A program made the translations under genes and the position numbers. A DNA stretch of 64,000 nt from Cetorhinus maximus (taxonomy: Eukaryota): assembly GCF_964194155.1 (NCBI RefSeq), contig NC_135917.1, positions 10,230,001 to 10,294,000 on the forward strand, in the 5' to 3' direction. Positions 2,351-46,190 of this stretch are shown piece after piece. Every line of letters begins with the position of its first letter. The first letter of the stretch is position 1. Below the pieces are notes generated by a model, which saw only the letters and a program-made list of their open reading frames with translations, ran no database searches and was not told the DNA's origin.

Positions 2351-4549
2351 AACTGGCTGAGTTAAAACAACACTTACCCGGTCAAATGCCACCGCTACGC
2401 CAACAATCGCTACACTGAACTGTTGGCACTGGCACACTGAAAAAGTACCAAACTGGCATCAGCGTCAAAGGGGCAGTGCAAGGCTAACTAGCCGTACTTT
2501 GGACTAGACTGGCCTCGCACGCTTCAGAAAGGTCTGCACTGACATGCGCTCCTGGGCATTAAGGTCCACCTGAATGGTGCTCGGTTCAGGTGCAGATAAA
2601 CGATTGCGTACATCAAACATAAAGCACCCTGCTGAAACTGACTGCCATCGGCACTTCAATTGAAATGAATAAATGCTTTAAAAATATATAATTAAAATAG
2701 ATTCAATCACAAACAGTGATTGAGTAAGTACAGTGGGATTAAAGGCACCACCCACCCCAGTTATCCTCATGGACTAAATAATAGAAAATGAACAATCTGG
2801 TTCTCAGTATAAGCAGGAACTTATAGAAGGAATGCCTTCCTATTCATTATCATGGCATGTGGATTAGAGCCTGGCATTGACCCAATTCCTTGTATATATA
2901 CCACAGATTGTATGCTTCTTTTTAAAAGCCTTTTTCACTCCACAGTATAAATGCCCCGATGCCCAAGAAGGCAAGACCCACAAAAGTGCCTGTCCACGAT
3001 TGTACCTTCAGGAACAAGGTGTTTTAACAACTTGCATTTATATAGCATCTTCAATGTTGTAAAATGTCCCAAAGCACTTCATAGGCAAAAACTGACACCG
3101 AGCCACATAAGGAGCTATTAGGGATAGGTGATCAAACGCTTGGTCAAAGAGGTAGATTTTAAGGAACGTCATAAAGGAGGAGAGTTGCAGAGGTTGAGAA
3201 GTTTAAGGAGGGAATTCCAGAGCTTAGGGCCCAGGCTATTGAAGGCACGACCACTAATGGTGGGGCGATTAAAATCGGGGATGCTCAAGAGGCCAGAATT
3301 AGAGGGTCAAAATCCTGGGACTCCCTACATAACAGCACTGTAGGTGTACCTACACCACATGGACTGCAGTGGTTCAAGAAGGCAGCTCACCACCACCTTC
3401 TCAAGGGCAATAAATACTGGCCCAGCCAGAGAAGCCACATCCCGTGAATGAGTAAAATAATTTGCAGAGGGTTGGAGGACTGGAGGAGGTTAGGGAGTTA
3501 GGGAGGGGCAAGGCATTGGAGGGTTCGAACAGGGGGAATAAGAATTTTAAAATTGTGATGTCGCTATTGTAGATCAGAGAGCACAAGGTGACAGTGACTT
3601 GGACTTGAAGTGAAAAGAGGCAGCTAAGTATTTACACTGTTCCAAGCAATTGGATCACTGGACTCCACGGTGTCCCTGGTACCTGACTGTAAGAAGGAAG
3701 TCACACACTGAGATTGCCCTCCCTAGACAGCGAACATCCAAACAAAGCAAGAGGCTCCTAAAGTGAAAACATGTTAATGGATGGAATCAGGTAATGCAAT
3801 CTGTAAATTGTGGAATGTCATGTCATTAAAAACTTGCCTCACCGTGATCCATTGGGCCCATCCTTTATAGATGGGCTGAATATTTGAGTATGTAGATTGC
3901 TACCACAGCTCCTGCTAAATGTCATTGCTGATTGGTTGGGAGTGAGGGGAAGATTTATAATATCATAAATGCTGCTGCTCCTGGTTTACATTAGATTTTT
4001 ATTTTAACTGGCAGCAGATTGAAATCGGCACATAAAAGGGCTTCTCTCTCGCTTGAAAAACCAACTAAAAGTCAACACAATTTCCTCATGCCTAGTTTTC
4101 CAGACAAAACTCTCTCCCCGTCACCACCCCCCGGCCTCCACAAACAACCCCCCCACCCCCCACTCCACCCACACCCTTAAGGCTAGCTTCACCAAATGCA
4201 CCTCCTTTCTGATCTCTATCATGGTTAGATCTGTCTGCATACTCTTACTCCCTGTGCACCACTAAATAACTTTCCATTTGTTGCACGCTTGCAGCCTAGT
4301 CTTGCCGACTGTCGAATCAGCAGGGAGCTGCTTTGCTTTTTAAGTCCGATTTTGGAGCAAAAACAAAAAAAAAAGCGGAGCGAGTCTGATTCATATCCCT
4401 GTAAATATGCAGCCCGTCACCAGTGTGGGTCACCGCTGACCTGTGTGGGCTTGGCAATGGGAACAGTCTTGCTAGGAGAGTGCCCCCAGTGGCCATGCAG
4501 GTGGTGTAATGAGGCACTGAATTGAGTGCCAGATCTGTGGACAGTTAGC

Positions 4550-9720: not shown

Positions 9721-12357
9721 TAACAATTTGCTGAGCAAAAGATTTGCCCTGCTACCTTCAAAGATTGATAGCTGGAACTTCTCATTGCTCTGTTCTTTAG
9801 TGCAACAAGACTCTTAAAATTCCCCTGCATTGGCAGAGGGAAAGCACAATGTTAATACAGTCTCTTAAGGGAAGCATCTCCAATCATTCATCACTACTGC
9901 AGAAGAATTGAAAGAGCAAAGTTGCATCTTGGGGTTTTGTTAGGTAGGGGCATCAAGGGTTACAGATCAACCATGATCAGATTTAATGGACTGTCTAATA
10001 TAATCTTTTGGCAAGTCAACCACTCCTTATATGCTATAATGAAATGCAGCCCTCTTAAGTATGCAGTATGGGTTCACAATTCAATACAATGGAAATGGCT
10101 GAATAAAGTGGAACATGATGTATCAGCTTAGGATAGCTGGTGGCAATCTGGTCACAGAAAGATTGAGGGTTCAAACAGTGCTTATGATAGGAACAAGGAG
10201 GAGGCCATTCAGCCTCTCGAGTCTGTTTAGTTTCATTAGGCCAATCTGTATTTTAACTCCATCTACCTGACTTGTTTCACTAATCCTTAATACCCTCGCC
10301 TGACAAACAAATCTATCAATCTCAGTTTTGGAATTTTCAATTGACCCCCAGCCTCAACACCTCGTTGAGGGAGAGAGCTCCAGATTTTCACTACCCTTTG
10401 TGTGAAGAAGTGCTTTCTGATTACATTTTGCCAAGTGTAACTTCTGGATTTAAAGTTCCTCCTCACAAAAAAAACTAGATCAAGTGCAGCTGTTAACTCT
10501 CAATCCACTTCTCAGCAGATACAAATCCATTTTCTTTTTAAAGATGCCAGTTGGCCCCAATTCAGTGGGAGTTTGTTCCACATTGTGTGGGGGAGAAAAA
10601 CAAGCCTTGGCAGCAAGAGTTGGTGAAAGCAAATGGTCGGGCAAGAGACATGTCCCCTTCACTTTGTGACCTTCGGACAATCTGTTGCGCCATGTGTATA
10701 TGGGCTTTCACTTACAGCCTGCTCAAACATGCTGAACTGGGATTCAGTGTAAACCATCTCTTCAGTGCTGGCCCCTTATCCTAGTCTCCAGTGAAAGGAC
10801 GCATGAGGCATGAAAAGCAAGTGAAAGCTGCTTTTAAAACTAATCGCCTCTCCGTAACCTCCTTCAGCCCCACAACCCTGCGAGATCTCATGTTCCTCTG
10901 ATTCTAGCCCCTCGCACATTCCCAATTCCACCATTGGCGGGCACGCTTTTTGTTGCCAAAGCCCCATGCCCTGGAATTCCCACCCTAAACCTGTCCGCCT
11001 CTCCCCTCATGTAAGACGTTCCTTAAATCCCACCTTTTTGACCAAGCTTTTGGTCAGATATCATTCAGTGTGACTCAGTATTGAGTTGTGTTTCATAGTG
11101 CTCCTGGGGCGCATCCTGGGACGGTTTTACCCACTCAAAGGTGCTATATAAATGTATGTTGTTGGTGTTATGACCCCCTCTACTATCACACAGACACCAG
11201 AAATGGCCTGGTCCCCAAACACAGCTGGACACGCTCCCTAAATGCCTTCGCTAGCCCTCTCCCCACCTATCAAAGTTTCGGACAAAACCAAAAACCATTC
11301 ATTGCATCCCCCAGCCACTTCCTCTCTACTCCGACTGCCCCCCCTCACCCCAACCCTTCCCCCCCCCACCCCAATGTGGCTGTAAATGGTAATTTAATCT
11401 CTTGCCCTCCAGCCTACCAGAGGAGGCCATTCAGCCCCTTTCTAAGTCTGTTCCGCCTTTCGATTAGAATATTAGATCATGACCTCATCTGTATAAATCT
11501 GTTCCAAGCTGTCATCTCCTTTTCCCCCCGTCTCTGCACTCGCTTCTACCTCTCCAACACCTTCCAGTGCACTTAATGGTAAACGACCTTAAACTAACGG
11601 GGGCCGGAGCAGGGCAAAAATCCCCACTTGGCGTCATTCATTTCCAACGCGCTTTTCATGGGAGTTTCACCATTAAATGACCTCATGTTTTGGGGGGGGG
11701 GGGGGGTGGGGATGGAGGACCGAAGAGGTCGCGGAAAAAAGTAGGAGCAGCACCTTAAATGAATCGTGTGACTGATTTTCAGGCCACCGAAAGCAAGCGC
11801 CTCTCAGTACCCATTGAATCATCAAAAAGTTTCACTTCACAGTGATTTCGAGTTACCCCCCCCACCACAAAAAAATATTTTTAAACTCATCGACTCCCAT
11901 TCAAGCTATCAAACTACTGTATGGAAAATATTAATAGGCTGGAACATTTGCTGCTGGAGTAACTGGATTTTTGCAAATGAAATCCTTCTAATAAAAGAGA
12001 GGTCTATTGTTATTGAAACCCAGACTCTTCCTGTCCAGTCTTACAATTACTACTGCAGATAAAACTATTTGGTTTTAATTCAAGAAGCAAAATTGCTCCG
12101 CCAGTGCTGTTTGTTGGCGAGTTCCACCTACTGTAACTGAGCCTGAACAACAGGGTTTGGATGTGTCACCCGCCTGGTGATGCACACAGCAGCAACCCCA
12201 CAGATCTTCCAACCAGCAACCCCCTCCACAATGGTTCTGGGTCGACAATAATAGGCATTTGGAGAGAAACAGACAGACAAAACAGGCGTGTTAAACTAGA
12301 AGGTGCTCCTGTCCAACAAACCCTGTACACACATCAGGCACAAACTCCCTCAACAAA

Positions 12358-12505
12358 AGCAAAACACTGCGGATGCTGGAAATCGGAAACAAAAACAGAC
12401 AATGCTGGATAAACTCAGCAGGTCTGACAGCATCTGTGGAGAGAGAAACAGAGTTAACTCTTTTCCCTCACAGATGCTGAGTTTTTCCAGCATTCTCTGT
12501 TTTTG
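12358..12505. repeat. Fold-back of two PLE tails
   Basis: Arms converge on the palindrome GAGTTAACTC at 12451-12460. Confidence 0.8.
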
Positions 12506-18984: not shown

Positions 18985-19116
18985 AAAAGCAAAATACTGC
19001 AGATTCTGGAAATCTGAAATGAAAACAAAAACATACTGGAAATACTCAGGTCTGGCAGCATTTGTGGGGAAAGAAAGAGTTAATGTTTCAGGTCAATGAC
19101 CTTTCATCAGAACTCT
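18985..19116 (-). mobile_element. Solitary PLE pLTR/tail fragment
   Basis: Reverse complement of the 46055-46190 tail. Confidence 0.8.
19077..19115 (-). ncRNA. Minimal type I hammerhead ribozyme motif (PLE-associated)
   Basis: Reads GAGTT-CTGATGA-A-AGGTC-ATT-GACCT-GAAA-CATT-AACTC. Stems I and II are perfect and the core boxes are intact. The palindrome ACGT has decayed to ACAT. Confidence 0.75.
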
Positions 19117-38165: not shown

Positions 38166-39389
38166 TTTCTCTACTTAAAAACACACAATGCAATGAGATA
38201 TACTGTCTTACTTACAAGTGACAGTGTCAGGGCACAAGTGACTATTCTCCCTCTGCCAAAACAAAGCTCAGGCTTGTTAAACACTTCCAAATGTATTCTG
38301 ACTTACTTGGCTCCTTCTCACGGCTCCATCTGTAACTGCACTGAACTGAGGCCCATACAAATCAGGGAGACTCTCGGTTCAGTCGCTGGTCTGTAACTAA
38401 TCTCAGTCAGGGGAGTGATAGGGAATGCTGTGGCTGCCTTCAGTCTCCAAGCAGGGGAGTGCAAACAGCGGCTAAGGAGGCTCCCACTGCTGACTGTCCC
38501 TCAGGGGTCACCCTACCTGAAAGTGGATGTTGCAATATCCTGATGATTTACCCTCGTAGGCAATAGTTCAACAACATGGCTATTTAACCAGCTACAGTGA
38601 GGGTGGGGGCACCTTAAATCCTTCTTTTGAATCAGTGCCAACAGCATCACTCAATCAGGTGTTGGAGTTGCTATTTTCAGCAACGGAGGTTGCGTTGGTT
38701 TTTAATTGAGCCAATTTAGACTTTGAAAAGCTCCGTTAGCCTATCAAAGGCTGTAATGCTCATGCCCCCTCTCGCCAGTGCCAATGCTGCTCCTCTTCCA
38801 AGTCAGACCCGGCATCAGGTTTTTTTTGAACAGAATGCCTTAACCAAGGTGCGCTTGCACTTGCAGTTTGAAAATAGGCGCGTTTCGTAAATTTCAATCT
38901 TGCTCTATGTGAAATGGTTGCACATTGGAAGCATAGGCACTGTTGCAGACCAGGGAGGCGAGGCAGCCAGTCCACAGACTGCTAGATCCGTCAAACAGCC
39001 TTGGGATCAATGTTTTAGTAACGTTGATTGAAGGATTGATGTTGCCCATGGGACTGGAGAGAACTCCCCTGCACTCCTTCGCAATAGCAGCTGTGGGATA
39101 ATTCATATTCGCCTGAGGGTGTCGACTAAAAGGTTTAGCGTCTTGATTTAACATCTCATCTGCAAGATGGCACCCGGGTTGGGGAGCAGCACACTGAAGT
39201 GTCAGCTGGGAGAGGGAGTGATTTTCTGGTAAAAAAAGGCACTGTTCACCCAAAGGACAGCATCTTCAACAACGCAGCCTTCTCTGTAGATAAGGCACCC
39301 TGTCGATCAGGGAACGTGAGCAGAAAATGCTGGAAATACTCAGCAGGTAGCTGTGGAGAGAGAAACATTTCAGGCCGACGGTCTTTCAT

Positions 39390-39699
39390 GGGAGGTCTTG
39401 TGGCGCAATGGGTGGTGTCCCTACCTCTGGGCCAGAAGCTCTGGGTTCAAGTCCCGCTTCAGGACTTGATGGCCATGGAAGGTGTGTTCATAATGTGGCC
39501 AAACAGGATGATTATCAGCCTGCAAACCCTTCCAATATGCCTGATGGCAGGCAATAAGAACGGGAGAGTTTCCTGGTCAGCCATGCTGCAGAAGGCATTG
39601 GCGAACCACTGCATTACTTTGCCAAGCATAATCATGGACTGATCCAATGGAAGCCCATTGTTGCCAATGTCCCCTTAGGGCTTGGTACCTGAAGGAAGA
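39390..39699 (+). mobile_element. tRNA-headed SINE with an RTE-like segment
   Basis: A box TGGCGCAATGG, B box GGTTCAAGTCC, 8-bp TSD TCTTTCAT (39382-39389 and 39700-39707). Sister copies at 35627-35918 and 59190-59360. Confidence 0.88.
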
Positions 39700-40751
39700 T
39701 CTTTCATCAGAACTGGGAAAAGTTAGAGATTAAACAAGTAGTTGAAAAAAAGAGGAGTGGTAGGATGGAACACGCAAGTGATTAAATAACAAAGGAATGA
39801 TGGTGCAAGGCCTAAGGGAGTGGTAATGGTAAAGAAGCAAGTAAAGAAACAAAAGATGTGCCTAGAGGAGGTGTCAATAGCAGAATGCTACCATCTGAAA
39901 GCAAAAACAAGAGTGAAATCAAAACCAGCAAAGAAAAAGGAAACAAAATAGGGGCAAAGGTTGCAGAGCAAATTTGACATTGTGTTGAGAAGACTGTAAA
40001 GTGTCTAATTGAACAATGAGGTGCTGTTCCTTGAGCTTCACTGCAGGAGACCAAGGATAGGAAGGTCAGTGAGAGAGCAAGGTGGAGATTTAAAAGGACA
40101 GGTGACCAGAAGCTCAGGATCACGCAGAGGTGTTCTGAAAAACAGCTCCCCAAACTGCAGTTTTGCACCCCAGTTTTGAGCAGACAGCAGTGTGGGAGTG
40201 ATACTAAGTTGAAAGAAGTGTAAGTAAATCACTGTTTCGCCTGGAAGGAGTGGTTGGATGGTGAGGGGAGAGGAGGTAAAAGGGCAGGTGTTGCGTCTCC
40301 TGTACTTGCATGGAAAGGTGCCGTGGGAAGGAGGGGGGATATTGGGGGGAGTTAGAGGAGTGGACCAGGGAGTTGTGGAGGGAGCCTTCGGAACACTGAA
40401 AAGGGAGGGAAGGAGCAGATGTGTTTGGTGTTGAGTATGGAGGCTGGTGAAGTGGGAGGTGAGGACAAGGGGATCCCTATCGTGCTCCTGGGATGGAAGG
40501 GAAGGGGTGCAAGCATAAATGCAGAAATAGAACGGACACAGTCAAGGGCCCTGACAATCACGGTGGGGAGAAATCCTCAACTGAGGAAGAAAAGAAGACA
40601 TTTCAGAAGCACTGGTATGCAAGTTTGCATTGTCAGAACAGGTGTGACAGAGACAGAGAAGCTGGGAGAATGGAATGGTGTCCTCACAGGAAGCAGAATG
40701 TAAGAGAAGTGTAGTCAAGACAGCTGTGGGGATCAGTGGGCTTATAATAAA

Positions 40752-41481
40752 AACAGAAACAGAAATACCTGGAAAAACTCAGCAGGTCTGGCAGCATCGG
40801 CAGAGAAGAGCAAAGTTGACATTTCGACCTCATGACCCTTCAACAGAACTAAGTAGAAATGGGAAGGGGTGAAATATAAGCTGGTTTAAGGGGTGGGGGG
40901 GGGTGAAGAAGTGGGGCTGGGTTGTTGGGACAAGCAAGCAGTGATAGGAGGAGATAACCAAAAGATGTAGAAATGGAAAGCAATGAAAGCAATGAAGGTG
41001 AACAAGGCAAAAGAGAGATTCGAAAATCCTGACGGAGAGTAGCACAAAACTTCTTCAAGGTAGGCATTTCTTGAAGAGAAGTGGCAGTCAATTAAACACA
41101 GAGATAAAAACAAAAAATTGCAGATGCTGGAAATCCAAAACAAAAATAGAAACACCTGGAAAAACTCAGCAGGTCCCAGAATTTTCGAATCTCTCTTTTG
41201 CCTTGTTCACCTTCATTGCTTTCCATTTCTACATCTTTTGGTTATCTCCTCCTATCACTGCTTGCTTGTCCCAACAACCCACCCCCACTTCTTCTCCTCC
41301 CCCTGCTCCCCCCTTAAACCAGCTTATATTTCACCCCTTTCCCATTTCTACTTAGTTCTGTTGAAGGGTCATGAGAACTCGAAACGTCAACTTTGCTCTT
41401 CTCCGCTGATGCTGCCAGACCTGCTGAGTTTTTCCAGGTATATCTATTTTTGTTTTGGATTTCCAGCATCCGCAGTTTTTT
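40752..41481. mobile_element. Non-autonomous mini-Penelope insertion with partial tandem plus inverted copy
   Basis: 13-bp TSD GGCTTATAATAAA at 40739-40751 and 41482-41494. Inverted arms at 40752-41027 and 41181 to about 41456. CTGGAAAAACTCAGCAGGTC recurs at a 387-bp spacing. Confidence 0.9.
41354..41392 (+). ncRNA. Minimal hammerhead motif with variant core
   Basis: Reads AGTT-CTGTTGA-A-GGGT-CATGAGA-ACTC-GAA-ACGT-C-AACT. The ACGT palindrome and GTC cleavage triplet are intact, but CTGT replaces CTGA. Mirror copy at 40814-40850 (minus). Confidence 0.65.
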
Positions 41482-42236
41482 GGCTTATAATAAATATTAG
41501 CCAACAGTCTATCCCCAGAAATGGAGACAGAGAACTCAAGGAAGGGAAGGGAAGAGTCAGAGATGGAACATGTGAAGGTGAGAGAAGGGTGGAAATTGGA
41601 AGCAGACACAAACACATAGTTGCCAGGACACCTGAAAGAAATCCTCTGCTCTTCTTTGAAATAATAGGACCTATTGGAACAAAATCCTCCTGTGGCCTGC
41701 TAAACACTCTGAGTCCTTTCATATTGGTGCAAGGGACTAGCTCTGTGTCAAAATCCATAAATTAAATCCTTTTTTTGTGGGTCAGGGAATACAAGACTGC
41801 TACTTGACCAGTCACGTTTCACTTGGAAAATCTAATGGGTCTGTTCCCCAATCGATTGAGACATTCTGCACACGTGGATAAAAATTAAAATTGCATGCAC
41901 CCAATTGGGCTCCAGTACAGGAGGTGAAGTGCCAGAGGGAATTTATTGTGACTCTGTTCCCTTGGAACTATATTGTCCACAGACACCAGGTAAACATGTC
42001 TTTTGACTCTGGACAATGGATAATACAGTTTATGCTATGCTATAGTATGTGCTCGCTGACCTATAATGGTCACTTCTGGCAATTTAAAAATTCTCATCCT
42101 TGCTTTCAAATCTTTCCGTGACTTTGCCCTCTACCACCTCCCCCTCCCTATCTCTGGAATATCCTCCAGCCCTACAACCCTCTGTGATCTCTGCGCTCCT
42201 CCAATTCCGGCTTCTTGTGTAACTCCGATTTTAATT

Positions 42237-42894
42237 TTTTTCTTTGCAAAAATATACTTTATTGATAAAATATTGAAAAGAACATTACAAAATATTTCAA
42301 AATGGCCATCACAGACAGTGCAATCATATTCAAATTATCGACATACATCATGTTGCACTCTGAGGTGCTTCAATACAATTATGATACATTTAGTATTCAC
42401 TGTATACATTCAATGTGAGCCGTACAGCCCGAGGGGTCTATACAATTCCCAGCCCTTCTGTACTCTATGGCAGAAAGGTCTTAGACAGCGATCTTTCCCC
42501 ATTGCGCCTTTGTGGCAGCTGCCCCAAGCTTTAGTGCGTCCCTCAGCATGTAGTCCTGGACCTTGGAATGTGCCAGTCTGCAACACTCGGTCGGGGACAA
42601 CTCTTTGCACTGGAAGACCAACAAGTTTCGGGCAGACCAAAGAGCGTCATTCACCGAGCTGATGATCCTCCAGCTGCAGTTGATGTTTGTCTCGGTGTGT
42701 GTCCCTGGGAACAGCCCGTAGAGCACAGAGTCCTGTGTCACAGAACCGCTCAGGATGAACCTCGACAGAAACCACTGCATCTCTCTCCAGACCTTCTTTG
42801 CAAAGGCACATTCCACAAGGAGGTGAACAACCATCTCGTCCCCACCACAGCCACCTCGAGGGCACCGTGCCGAGGGGGTGAGACTCCGGGCGTG
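42237..42894 (-). mobile_element. 5'-truncated L1/Tx1-clade LINE inserted in an L2 copy
   Basis: Open ORF2 C-terminus with CCHC knuckle (CPRGGCGGDEMVVHLLVEC) and LWSARN. 3'UTR has AATAAA and a short A-tail. TTTAATT is duplicated at 42230-42236 and 42895-42901. Confidence 0.9.
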
Positions 42895-43959
42895 TTTAAT
42901 TGCTCCACTATTGGTGGCTGCGCCTTCAGATGCCTGGGCCCTAAGCCCTGGAATTCTCTCCCTAAACCTCTCCGCATCTCTTTAACGTGAAAAGTGCGAT
43001 ACAAATACAAGCTGTTATTGTTGTTCCACTTTATTGGCAGTAAAGAGCATTGTGGTGTCCTGAGTTCACGAAAGGTGCTACAGAAATAAAAGCTTTTCTT
43101 GCTTGAACTGATCGCAAAACACATGAGTATTATTGGCCTGAGCCTTTATTGGGGCAGTGACTCAGAGCACTGTTGACAGCGGGAGAATTTGGCAGCTGAC
43201 AACACATAAAGCTGTCCCCTTTCCCAATGCACACTCTCTCACCTGGAGGAGCTCCACAATCTGAATACAAACACAAAACCACACACATGCAGGCAGCTTA
43301 TTTAGAAGGCACATTTTTTTTGGCGCTAAATCCACCTGTAAGCAGTTCTCTACTGAGGACCTGTTGGGACTTGAAGACATTGCTTGCACTCCTGTGTGTT
43401 GCCCAGGGCCCTGTTCTGTCATATGACTCTATATGTATGTGCCCATTGTTCTTGAAGGGAGACAGTAATGGGTGTGTTGGGAATTCCTGCTCCACCTGAA
43501 CTGGTTTTAGGACTTACAGCAACCGTGTGTACAATGAGATAGCTCTGTTTGGGCAGGAGGAGACAACAACATTTTGTTTGTGACTCAGGCTTGATACCTT
43601 TCCAGTTCCCACGCATTCTCCCCTATTTCCCTGAGACATGGACTAATGGCAGGGCACGAACCAGTTGTCTTCAAGTACATTTCCCGAATGAGGATCCTTC
43701 CAATTCAAATCTAGAGAGTGTGCATTGATCAGGCAGCGACCATTAAAAGCAAGACCAAGCCGGGGGTCTCACCCGATGTTCAAGTGGGATCTTTCTTCTC
43801 CCTTGCCCAGTGATGCTGAGACCATTTATCATAGGCTTACTCATACTAGAGAGGAGCTGACTCAACACAGGCCAGCAATGGAGACCTAGGACCTTCCAGC
43901 TCATGACCACATCGCCCTTCATGAGGAGACCCAGCAGCCATTTTAGGCAAAGGTTTGTC

Positions 43960-45219: not shown

Positions 45220-46190
45220 ATCGCCCATCTCCACCCTCGTCCTCCCTTTCCATTCCACCAACCTTGGTATTCAACAGATAATCCTTTGCCATTTCTACCT
45301 CTAGCATGACACCACCAACAAACACACCTTCCCCTCCCCTTGCCCCCCTGAGGGGACCATTCCCTCCGTGACTCCTTGGTTCACTCCTCAGTCACTCCCT
45401 GCACCTCCTCCTTTTCCTAAGACATCTTTCCATGCAAGTGCAGGAGACGCAACACCTGCCCTTTTGCCTCCTCTCTGTTCACCATCTAAGGCTCTAACCA
45501 CTTTTTCCAGGTGCAAACACGGTTTACTTACACTTCTTTCAATTTAGCATAGTGTATGTGTGCTCATGGTGTTGTCTGCTCTATGTTGAGGAGACCAAGC
45601 AGAGTGTAAGTGTGACCCTGAGCTTCCAGTCTCCTGTCATTTTAGTTCTCTATTTTACTCCCACTCTGACCTTTCTGTCCTTGGCCTGCTGCAGTGTTTT
45701 TAGTGAAGCTCAACACAAGCTTGAGGAACATCATCTCACCTTTCAATTAGGACTTGACAGCCTTCCAGACTCAACATTGAGTTCAACAATTTCAGTGACC
45801 TGCCTCCCACTTTGTTCCCTTTAAAACCAAAACCTGCAAAGATACTCTCGTTTTTTTTTCCTTTTGGACATCATTCTGCCATTCACACCTCCTCTAGCCA
45901 CATTTTGTGTTTAACTTGTCCCATTATCACTTTGTCCTTACACCACCAACACTTTTGTCATTTAATCTCTCCTGTCTCCCACCCTCACAGACACTTTTTA
46001 TTTTTCCCCTCCCCTCTTTCACTTGCTTAAAGCCTATTACATCGCTAACTTTTCCCAGTTCTGATGAAAGGTCATTGGCCTGAAGCATTAACTCCGTTTT
46101 TCTCTTTCTACAGATACTGTCAGACCTGCTGAATATATACAGCATTTTCCTGTTTTTATTTCAGATTTCCAGCATGTTTTGCTTTTTTAG
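45220..46190 (+). mobile_element. Penelope-like element 3' fragment (GIY-YIG endonuclease remnant plus pLTR)
   Basis: Encodes YVCSWCCLLYVEETK (degenerate VYCIxCxxCxxxYIGET) and EAQHKLEEHHLTFQLG. The tail has a hammerhead motif and CAGACCTGCTGA..CAGCATTT. Confidence 0.85.
46057..46093 (+). ncRNA. Decayed minimal hammerhead motif
   Basis: Reads AGTT-CTGATGA-A-AGGTC-ATT-GGCCT-GAAG-CATT-AACT, with GAAA mutated to GAAG. Confidence 0.6.

Follow-up and report, generated by a model that had tools for sequence, protein, structure and literature searches.

A shortened Penelope insertion in Cetorhinus maximus and a family-wide class of mini copies with private junctions

Results

Structure of the insert and its host

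The analysed DNA, here called the window, is a stretch of 64,000 nucleotides from Cetorhinus maximus (NC_135917.1, positions 10,230,001 to 10,294,000). It harbours an insert of 730 bp between the two copies of a 13-bp, AT-rich target site duplication (TSD), GGCTTATAATAAA, at 40739-40751 (left copy) and 41482-41494 (right copy), neither of which is assigned a strand. The host is an older, related Penelope-like element (PLE) on the minus strand: an upstream part of its RT (41482-41604, 83% to the parent reference described below) ends in the motif YYKP, and a second fragment (39971-40751, 64% to the reference) extends from the RT thumb to the endonuclease region. On the minus strand the empty site reads ...LANIYYKPTDPHSCLDY, and taking the insert out gives IYYKPTDPHSCLDY. 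The coordinates and the restored empty site confirm the initial annotation of this DNA, which had described a 730-bp insert with a 13-bp TSD splitting its host between YYKP and TD.

Two arms of opposite orientation make up the insert. The sense arm (40752-41175, minus strand) contains tail, 5' UTR, ORF start, junction, 3' UTR and again tail, and corresponds to parent positions 1-198 (with a local 9-bp duplication) joined to parent 3092-3291, followed by a tail that extends to parent ~39, the first of the family end-points. Read along the minus strand, the tail at 41175 is followed by the ATG at 41067, the junction at 40969/40968, the hammerhead core at 40846 and the tail again at 40788. The ATG (41065-41067, minus strand) is that of the parent ORF and represents the true N-terminus of the autonomous RT-GIY-YIG protein; the ORF start translates from here as MPTLKKFCATLRQDFRISLLPCSPSLL. 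The junction (40968-40969, minus strand) connects the early ORF (parent 198) to the 3' UTR (parent 3092) and is blunt, with zero microhomology. Splicing was rejected as its cause, the parent letters after and before the junction being CTCCTG and TCTGTG and not GT/AG.

The inverted, 5'-truncated arm (41177-41481, plus strand) measures 305 bp, of which ~278 bp match the sense arm and ~27 bp are extra tail. It is composed of parent 145-198, the same junction as in the sense arm (41230/41231), parent 3092-3291 and a tail that reaches the second family end-point at parent ~65-73. The only direct repeat in the insert comprises 39 nt at a spacing of 387, so that the repeat amounts to 1.1 units. Both the period of 387 bp and the inverted copy of about 275 bp with a second hammerhead, as initially annotated, were thus recovered. 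The arms mismatch at 18 of 217 aligned positions of the 3' part, which corresponds to ~4% decay per arm, and a comparison with 72 family copies revealed no private decay changes common to both arms.

Other mobile-element remnants surround the insert. The probable 3' end of the host PLE (39311-39715, minus strand) contains a hammerhead with the canonical CTGATGA core, which is thus retained in the older host; an insert of 318 bp, flanked by an 8-bp TSD at 39382 and 39700, interrupts this hammerhead. This insert carries what we take to be tRNA-like A and B box words and is therefore probably a SINE; ARAGORN detected no tRNA in 39000-40000. A second fragment of the host type lies ~5.5 kb away in inverted orientation (39847-40329 versus 45414-45912, arms 79-88% complementary). 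Related PLE families of greater age have left short tail or hammerhead pieces that are 70-85% like the insert at 12355-12442, 18991-19114 and 46057-46175, of which the one at 19110 has the canonical hammerhead core. An open frame of 166 amino acids at 42481-42981 (minus strand) has a Cys/His-rich stretch and presumably resembles a LINE ORF2 C-terminus.

The parent family

A full-length unit of 3,291 bp with RT and C-terminal GIY-YIG motifs (locus L079, 1617-4907) was used as parent reference, and the insert is 87-98% like both ends of this element. A genome search with the sense arm yielded 73 matches from 40 candidates scored out of 3,914; end-to-end matches among these reached 80-87%, and half matches, at 93-96%, turned out to be the ends of the long autonomous element. 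Exact copies of anchor words numbered 1,209 for the 3' UTR and 484 for the ORF start. An Atlas search returned RVT_1/HTH_animal/GIY-YIG clusters at 0.94-0.96; none of the five pieces submitted to a Pfam scan was matched, and a PDB sequence search gave zero matches. Upstream of GIY-YIG the L079 protein has the linker CKRKRCNTC, in agreement with the pattern CX2-5CxxC that marks Neptune or Nematis according to passages of PMC8557442; the Neptune-like assignment is made from this linker motif alone. Judged by homology, the insert is one aged, shortened copy derived from a very abundant, autonomous Penelope family of ~3.3 kb. The homology to the L079 ends bears out the initial view of a non-coding, Penelope-derived insert, and the mobilisation in trans postulated with it appears likely.

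The hammerhead motifs

Each strand of the insert carries one hammerhead-like motif. The motif of the sense arm (40814-40850, minus strand) is a minimal, type-I hammerhead-like sequence with core CTGTTGA that has decayed, with a 2-nt loss in stem II and a change of ACGT to ATGT that breaks the palindrome; the second one (41354-41392, plus strand) has the same core and one mismatch in stem II. The annotated CTGTTGA in both cores was therefore read correctly. An Rfam scan of the window gave no match to a hammerhead model and two weak, unrelated matches, and the motifs fold no better than shuffles in all four stretches (z -0.2 to 0.8); such weak signals are expected for minimal, dimer-type motifs, and the hammerhead call is based on the consensus pattern.

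Two origins had been offered for the altered core, a family-wide variant or an inactivating mutation at this locus. In a 35-mer context the genome contains 7,655 exact copies of CTGTTGA versus 24 of CTGATGA, which supports the former and rules out the latter. Among 182 family motifs in the retrieved loci, 127 have CTGTTGA, 23 CTGCTGA, 6 CTGCCGA and 3 CTGATGA, and stems I and II of 48 fully parsed motifs are 90-100% paired with one-sided G-U/A-U changes. The core counts and the paired stems indicate that position 6 was non-canonical while the family spread. Passages of the biochemical literature report that A6C reduces hammerhead activity (kobs <0.1 per min, PMC3088659) and renders it >10,000-fold slower in Mg than in Mn (PMC7151607); A6U appears in the passages of neither source. 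By analogy, a U6 or C6 core is predicted to cleave poorly. With the family-wide CTGTTGA and the local decay, the locus does not seem to encode a canonical active type-I hammerhead.

The junction is private to the locus

The insert might represent one member of an amplified, ribozyme-bounded retrozyme family with a monomer of 387 nt, the idea first put forward for this locus. Its size suits animal retrozymes (150-450 bp in excerpts of PMC7229834; a chondrichthyan mean of 363 bp in those of bioRxiv 10.64898/2026.07.22.740005), and about twenty other loci among the matches listed align with the monomer end to end at 80-87%. According to the same two sources, retrozymes derive from PLE pLTRs, are defined by two consecutive units with complete hammerheads (both bioRxiv 10.64898/2026.07.22.740005) and are expressed as circles (PMC7229834). 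A tandem of at least two complete-hammerhead units on one strand is absent at the locus, and with one hammerhead per strand no monomer could be excised from either. The nearer relatives, at 93-96%, are halves of the autonomous element, and the window junction was found in none of 25 aligned look-alike segments. A genome search with a 22-mer across the junction (1 mismatch) gave two matches, both at the window locus, and a 26-mer (up to 2 mismatches) gave a third one in unrelated sequence; the reversed pattern used as control gave one match each time. The search for further copies of the deletion junction that had been proposed therefore found it only here, at up to two mismatches. Given the private junction, the single hammerhead per strand and the 1.1 units, the postulate of an independent retrozyme family fails, and we regard it as hardly tenable; the window locus is ordinary and not a retrozyme. 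The best retrozyme-like candidates within the family are instead L164/L231 (G000:C1:217259800-217260800), L244 (G000:C18, near 42755700), L007 and L242, which have two to three tandem hammerhead-bearing units of 279-400 nt.

A gapped-pattern search resulted in 16 matches at 14 loci, which comprise 8 junction types, and a second hot spot gave 20 matches at 18 loci. Loci with a common junction mostly carry different subfamily marks, which points to hot spots and not to lineages: mini copies arise repeatedly at these sites. L041 and L042, which have both junction and subfamily marks in common, may be a sibling pair. Exact patterns miss aged siblings at ~4% decay per copy, so that one lost or decayed sibling of the window copy is possible, and an expanded lineage is ruled out.

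A class of mini copies

The extent of such deletions in the family was determined on the first 100 of the 484 ORF-start anchors as listed. Three of these that were already seen as minis, one inside another region and the last six were left out, and removal of two duplicates from the remaining 90 resulted in 88 loci. Twenty of these are full length, 12 are long up to the edge of the retrieved DNA, 7 stop and 49 show a jump on the same strand. Minis, in which the early ORF is joined to the 3' UTR, account for 35 of the 49 jump loci and for ~40% of the sampled ORF-start loci (35/88). Their units measure 146-1,026 nt, and 33 of 35 leave the ORF at parent 127-330, a range whose lower bound is set by the anchor. 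Mini junctions are nearly all private, with a junction in common in one pair among the 35. An exact TSD of at least 8 nt is present in 18 of 35 minis by a sliding search that permits chance matches, and an adjacent inverted arm was found at 31 of the 88 loci.

The position of the junctions is restricted on the 3' UTR side. Hammerhead stem I has its 5' edge at parent 3229. Of the 26 junctions within parent 3091-3331, 25 do not lie beyond this position and so keep the whole hammerhead, compared to 15 of 51 ordinary arm ends (Fisher P=7e-9). Within parent 3197-3233 we recognise what we take to be a TATA-like word ~29 nt before an initiator-like word, the presumed +1 being the first base of hammerhead stem I, and only one junction lies past the initiator-like word. 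This putative initiator-like reading would fit the hot spots at 3200 and 3228, but not those at 3092 or 3112. Microhomology of at least 2 nt is not enriched (13 of 32 resolved junctions, 35 tried, versus 42% of 150 random joins), and that of at least 4 nt is in slight excess (8/32 versus 15% in controls).

In eight of the 35 minis the junction occurs more than once, either in tandem or in both arms, and it is the same junction throughout each of the eight; two or three tandem units with an identical junction are present at L140, L164, L166, L171, L244, L007 and L035. Where an upstream pLTR is present, the arm that reaches the junction point re-enters the ORF start, and none of 20 minis continues into undeleted parent beyond this point, versus two of six upstream arms of longer deleted copies, a contrast that is inflated by the fact that full-length copies are chosen for processive RT. 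Two of the seven stop loci break off at parent 150 and 205, immediately beside the TSD, and one of them has 8 additional A, which is what RNAs ending at these positions should give. Insertions of this kind are L196 (G000:C3, near 26104200) and L218 (G000:C4, near 7694650), in which the sense arm terminates within the early ORF right next to the TSD, with oligo-A in one of the two, and the tail is absent at the early-ORF end; these copies were likely primed at an RNA 3' end. The other arm runs through undeleted parent at L128, L229 and L236, L128 has two junctions in series, and the arms of L012/L023 have different nested junctions.

Discussion

The layout of the insert is that of a textbook PLE insertion, as described in passages of PMC8557442 and PMC3846280 for EN+ elements of the Neptune/Nematis type. 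These share with it the partial tandem with an adjacent inverted, 5'-truncated copy, the one-sided tail of 30-40 nt, the TSD and the hammerhead in the pLTR, and with its parent the RT, the CX4CX2C linker and the C-terminal GIY-YIG domain. Even deleted derivatives, including one with inverted pLTRs and TSD, are described there. What distinguishes the present family is that ~40% of the ORF-start loci are minis, that their junctions are private and often repeated and that these stay within the early ORF at one end and 5' of the hammerhead at the other. For frequent, private, repeated junctions bounded by a hammerhead edge we found no account in the freely readable papers searched. The new part is thus the family-wide, testable mini pattern, the locus itself being ordinary.

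From the observed architecture and statistics we infer, with a rough probability of 0.55, that the insert was copied once, in trans, by the protein of its own family from a short, aborted and end-joined transcript; the transcript itself, the positions at which it starts and stops and the way in which it is closed are the postulated parts of this model. Transcription would begin within the 3' UTR/pLTR, at the hammerhead or further upstream (at parent 3092 for the window copy), read through the tail and end early in the ORF (at parent 198 for the window copy). The transcript would retain the cis region from hammerhead via tail to ORF start, and we propose that the protein binds the transcript because this region is retained. 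Its 3' end would then be joined to its 5' end, either by ligation to a circle or by an end-to-end jump of the RT. Finally, the endonuclease would place a nick in either strand of an AT-rich target, at a distance of 13 bp, and the RT would prime on each nick at two internal tail sites and proceed around the closed template. This would produce arms in head-to-head orientation that have one junction in common and tails of unequal length. Any mini formed in this way would come close to a dead end. The closed template of ~390 nt suggested in the initial annotation is plausible. Ribozyme cleavage is probably not what closes it, since the junction lies ~170 nt from the predicted cut site.

Several of these steps have counterparts in the Anolis Poseidon element PAc, a member of another clade than the parent family, for which excerpts of PMC11167929 report in vitro nicking and extension of both strands, two internal RT start sites ~30 nt apart that define the tail, an AT-rich target and the need for the ORF start in cis. 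Hammerhead mutants had no effect on PAc insertion in vitro, so that catalysis is dispensable. In PAc the hammerhead and the ATG overlap, and the reaction in vitro did not require the hammerhead core, whereas the present minis nearly always keep their hammerhead.

Circular PLE templates have been proposed earlier, closed by the hammerhead (PMC4209133). The minimal metazoan PLE hammerheads described in passages of that paper resemble ours in the extra nucleotide after position 9, the G10.1-C11.1 pair, the palindromic ACGT in place of helix III and the occurrence of two motifs, one on each strand, at a distance of 100-700 bp; position 6 is U family-wide here (C in subfamilies), whereas those passages report U3-A8 covariation and not A6U. 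Contigs of four sequencing runs, two of them probably RNA and two large, cover family sequence at the locus, and their loose ends at both junctions continue into undeleted parent; none of 32 contig pieces listed, of more than 75,000, bridges the junction, which speaks neither for nor against its presence in RNA, such assembled pieces being blind to ends, strand and circles.

A single RT jump on full-length RNA, from the 3' UTR to the early ORF held close to it in the RNP, would dispense with a closed template, and the same cDNA would also give rise to the inverted arm, either by folding back or through second-strand copying. Such a jump explains a private junction without any source, self-priming and template jumps have been proposed for PLEs in parts of PMC3846280, and the undeleted second arms at L128, L229 and L236 suit a long template. 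It does not, however, give two to three tandem units with an identical junction, and it leaves the hard edge at the hammerhead unexplained. Moreover, the tail of the inverted arm extends ~27 nt further than the end of the sense arm, and therefore this arm was not copied from that end. We consider a single jump improbable for the window insert.

Alternatively, the insert may have formed in two steps: an RT jump or a DNA deletion made a deleted genomic copy, which was transcribed and mobilised in trans once and whose source was then lost or decayed. The transcript was perhaps cut and closed by its two hammerheads, and the locus would be an incipient retrozyme that failed to spread, a weak form of the first idea. 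If such a source allele had since disappeared, the junction would likewise be private and repeated in both arms, so that a single assembly looks alike under both readings, and L242, L164 and L244 with their two tandem hammerheads could serve as sources; the serial junctions of L128, the nested ones of L012/L023, the possible siblings L041/L042 and the published deleted derivatives (PMC3846280) agree with this route. We nevertheless regard it as less likely, since the window junction has no sibling at up to two mismatches, no mini lineage has expanded, common junctions falling in different subfamilies, the arms have no private changes in common and the core is predicted to cleave poorly. Copying from an end-joined transcript is thus our preferred reading of the window insert, although the undeleted second arms and the nested junctions show that a single closed template does not explain every event in the family.

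Animal non-LTR retrozymes are, like the insert, short, non-coding and derived from PLE pLTRs, with a type-I hammerhead and units of 200-600 nt in the sources cited above, and both likely depend on a PLE protein; the insert differs from them in that it has neither a tandem of two intact hammerheads nor an amplified monomer family and in its minimal, non-canonical core. A tentative generalisation, to which we give rather less than even odds, is that PLEs routinely use as templates short RNAs that are made by joining the ends of their own aborted transcripts, that closure is independent of ribozyme cleavage, that the hammerhead serves as a start or binding mark and not as a catalyst, and that animal retrozymes originate from the pool of one-off mini-circles, which make up ~40% of ORF-start insertions. 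A role as mark rather than catalyst is suggested by the thousands of copies to which the family expanded with U at position 6 of the core.

The mini pattern bears on two open questions, namely which template yields the more-than-unit tandem and inverted insertions of PLEs and whether their hammerhead must cleave. It predicts RNA 5' ends at about parent 3092, 3112, 3200 and 3228 and 3' ends at 130-330, and it gives a minimal cis region of ~190 nt. It also suggests in concrete terms how an autonomous PLE could give rise to a retrozyme, a connection that has so far been argued from co-occurrence and trees.
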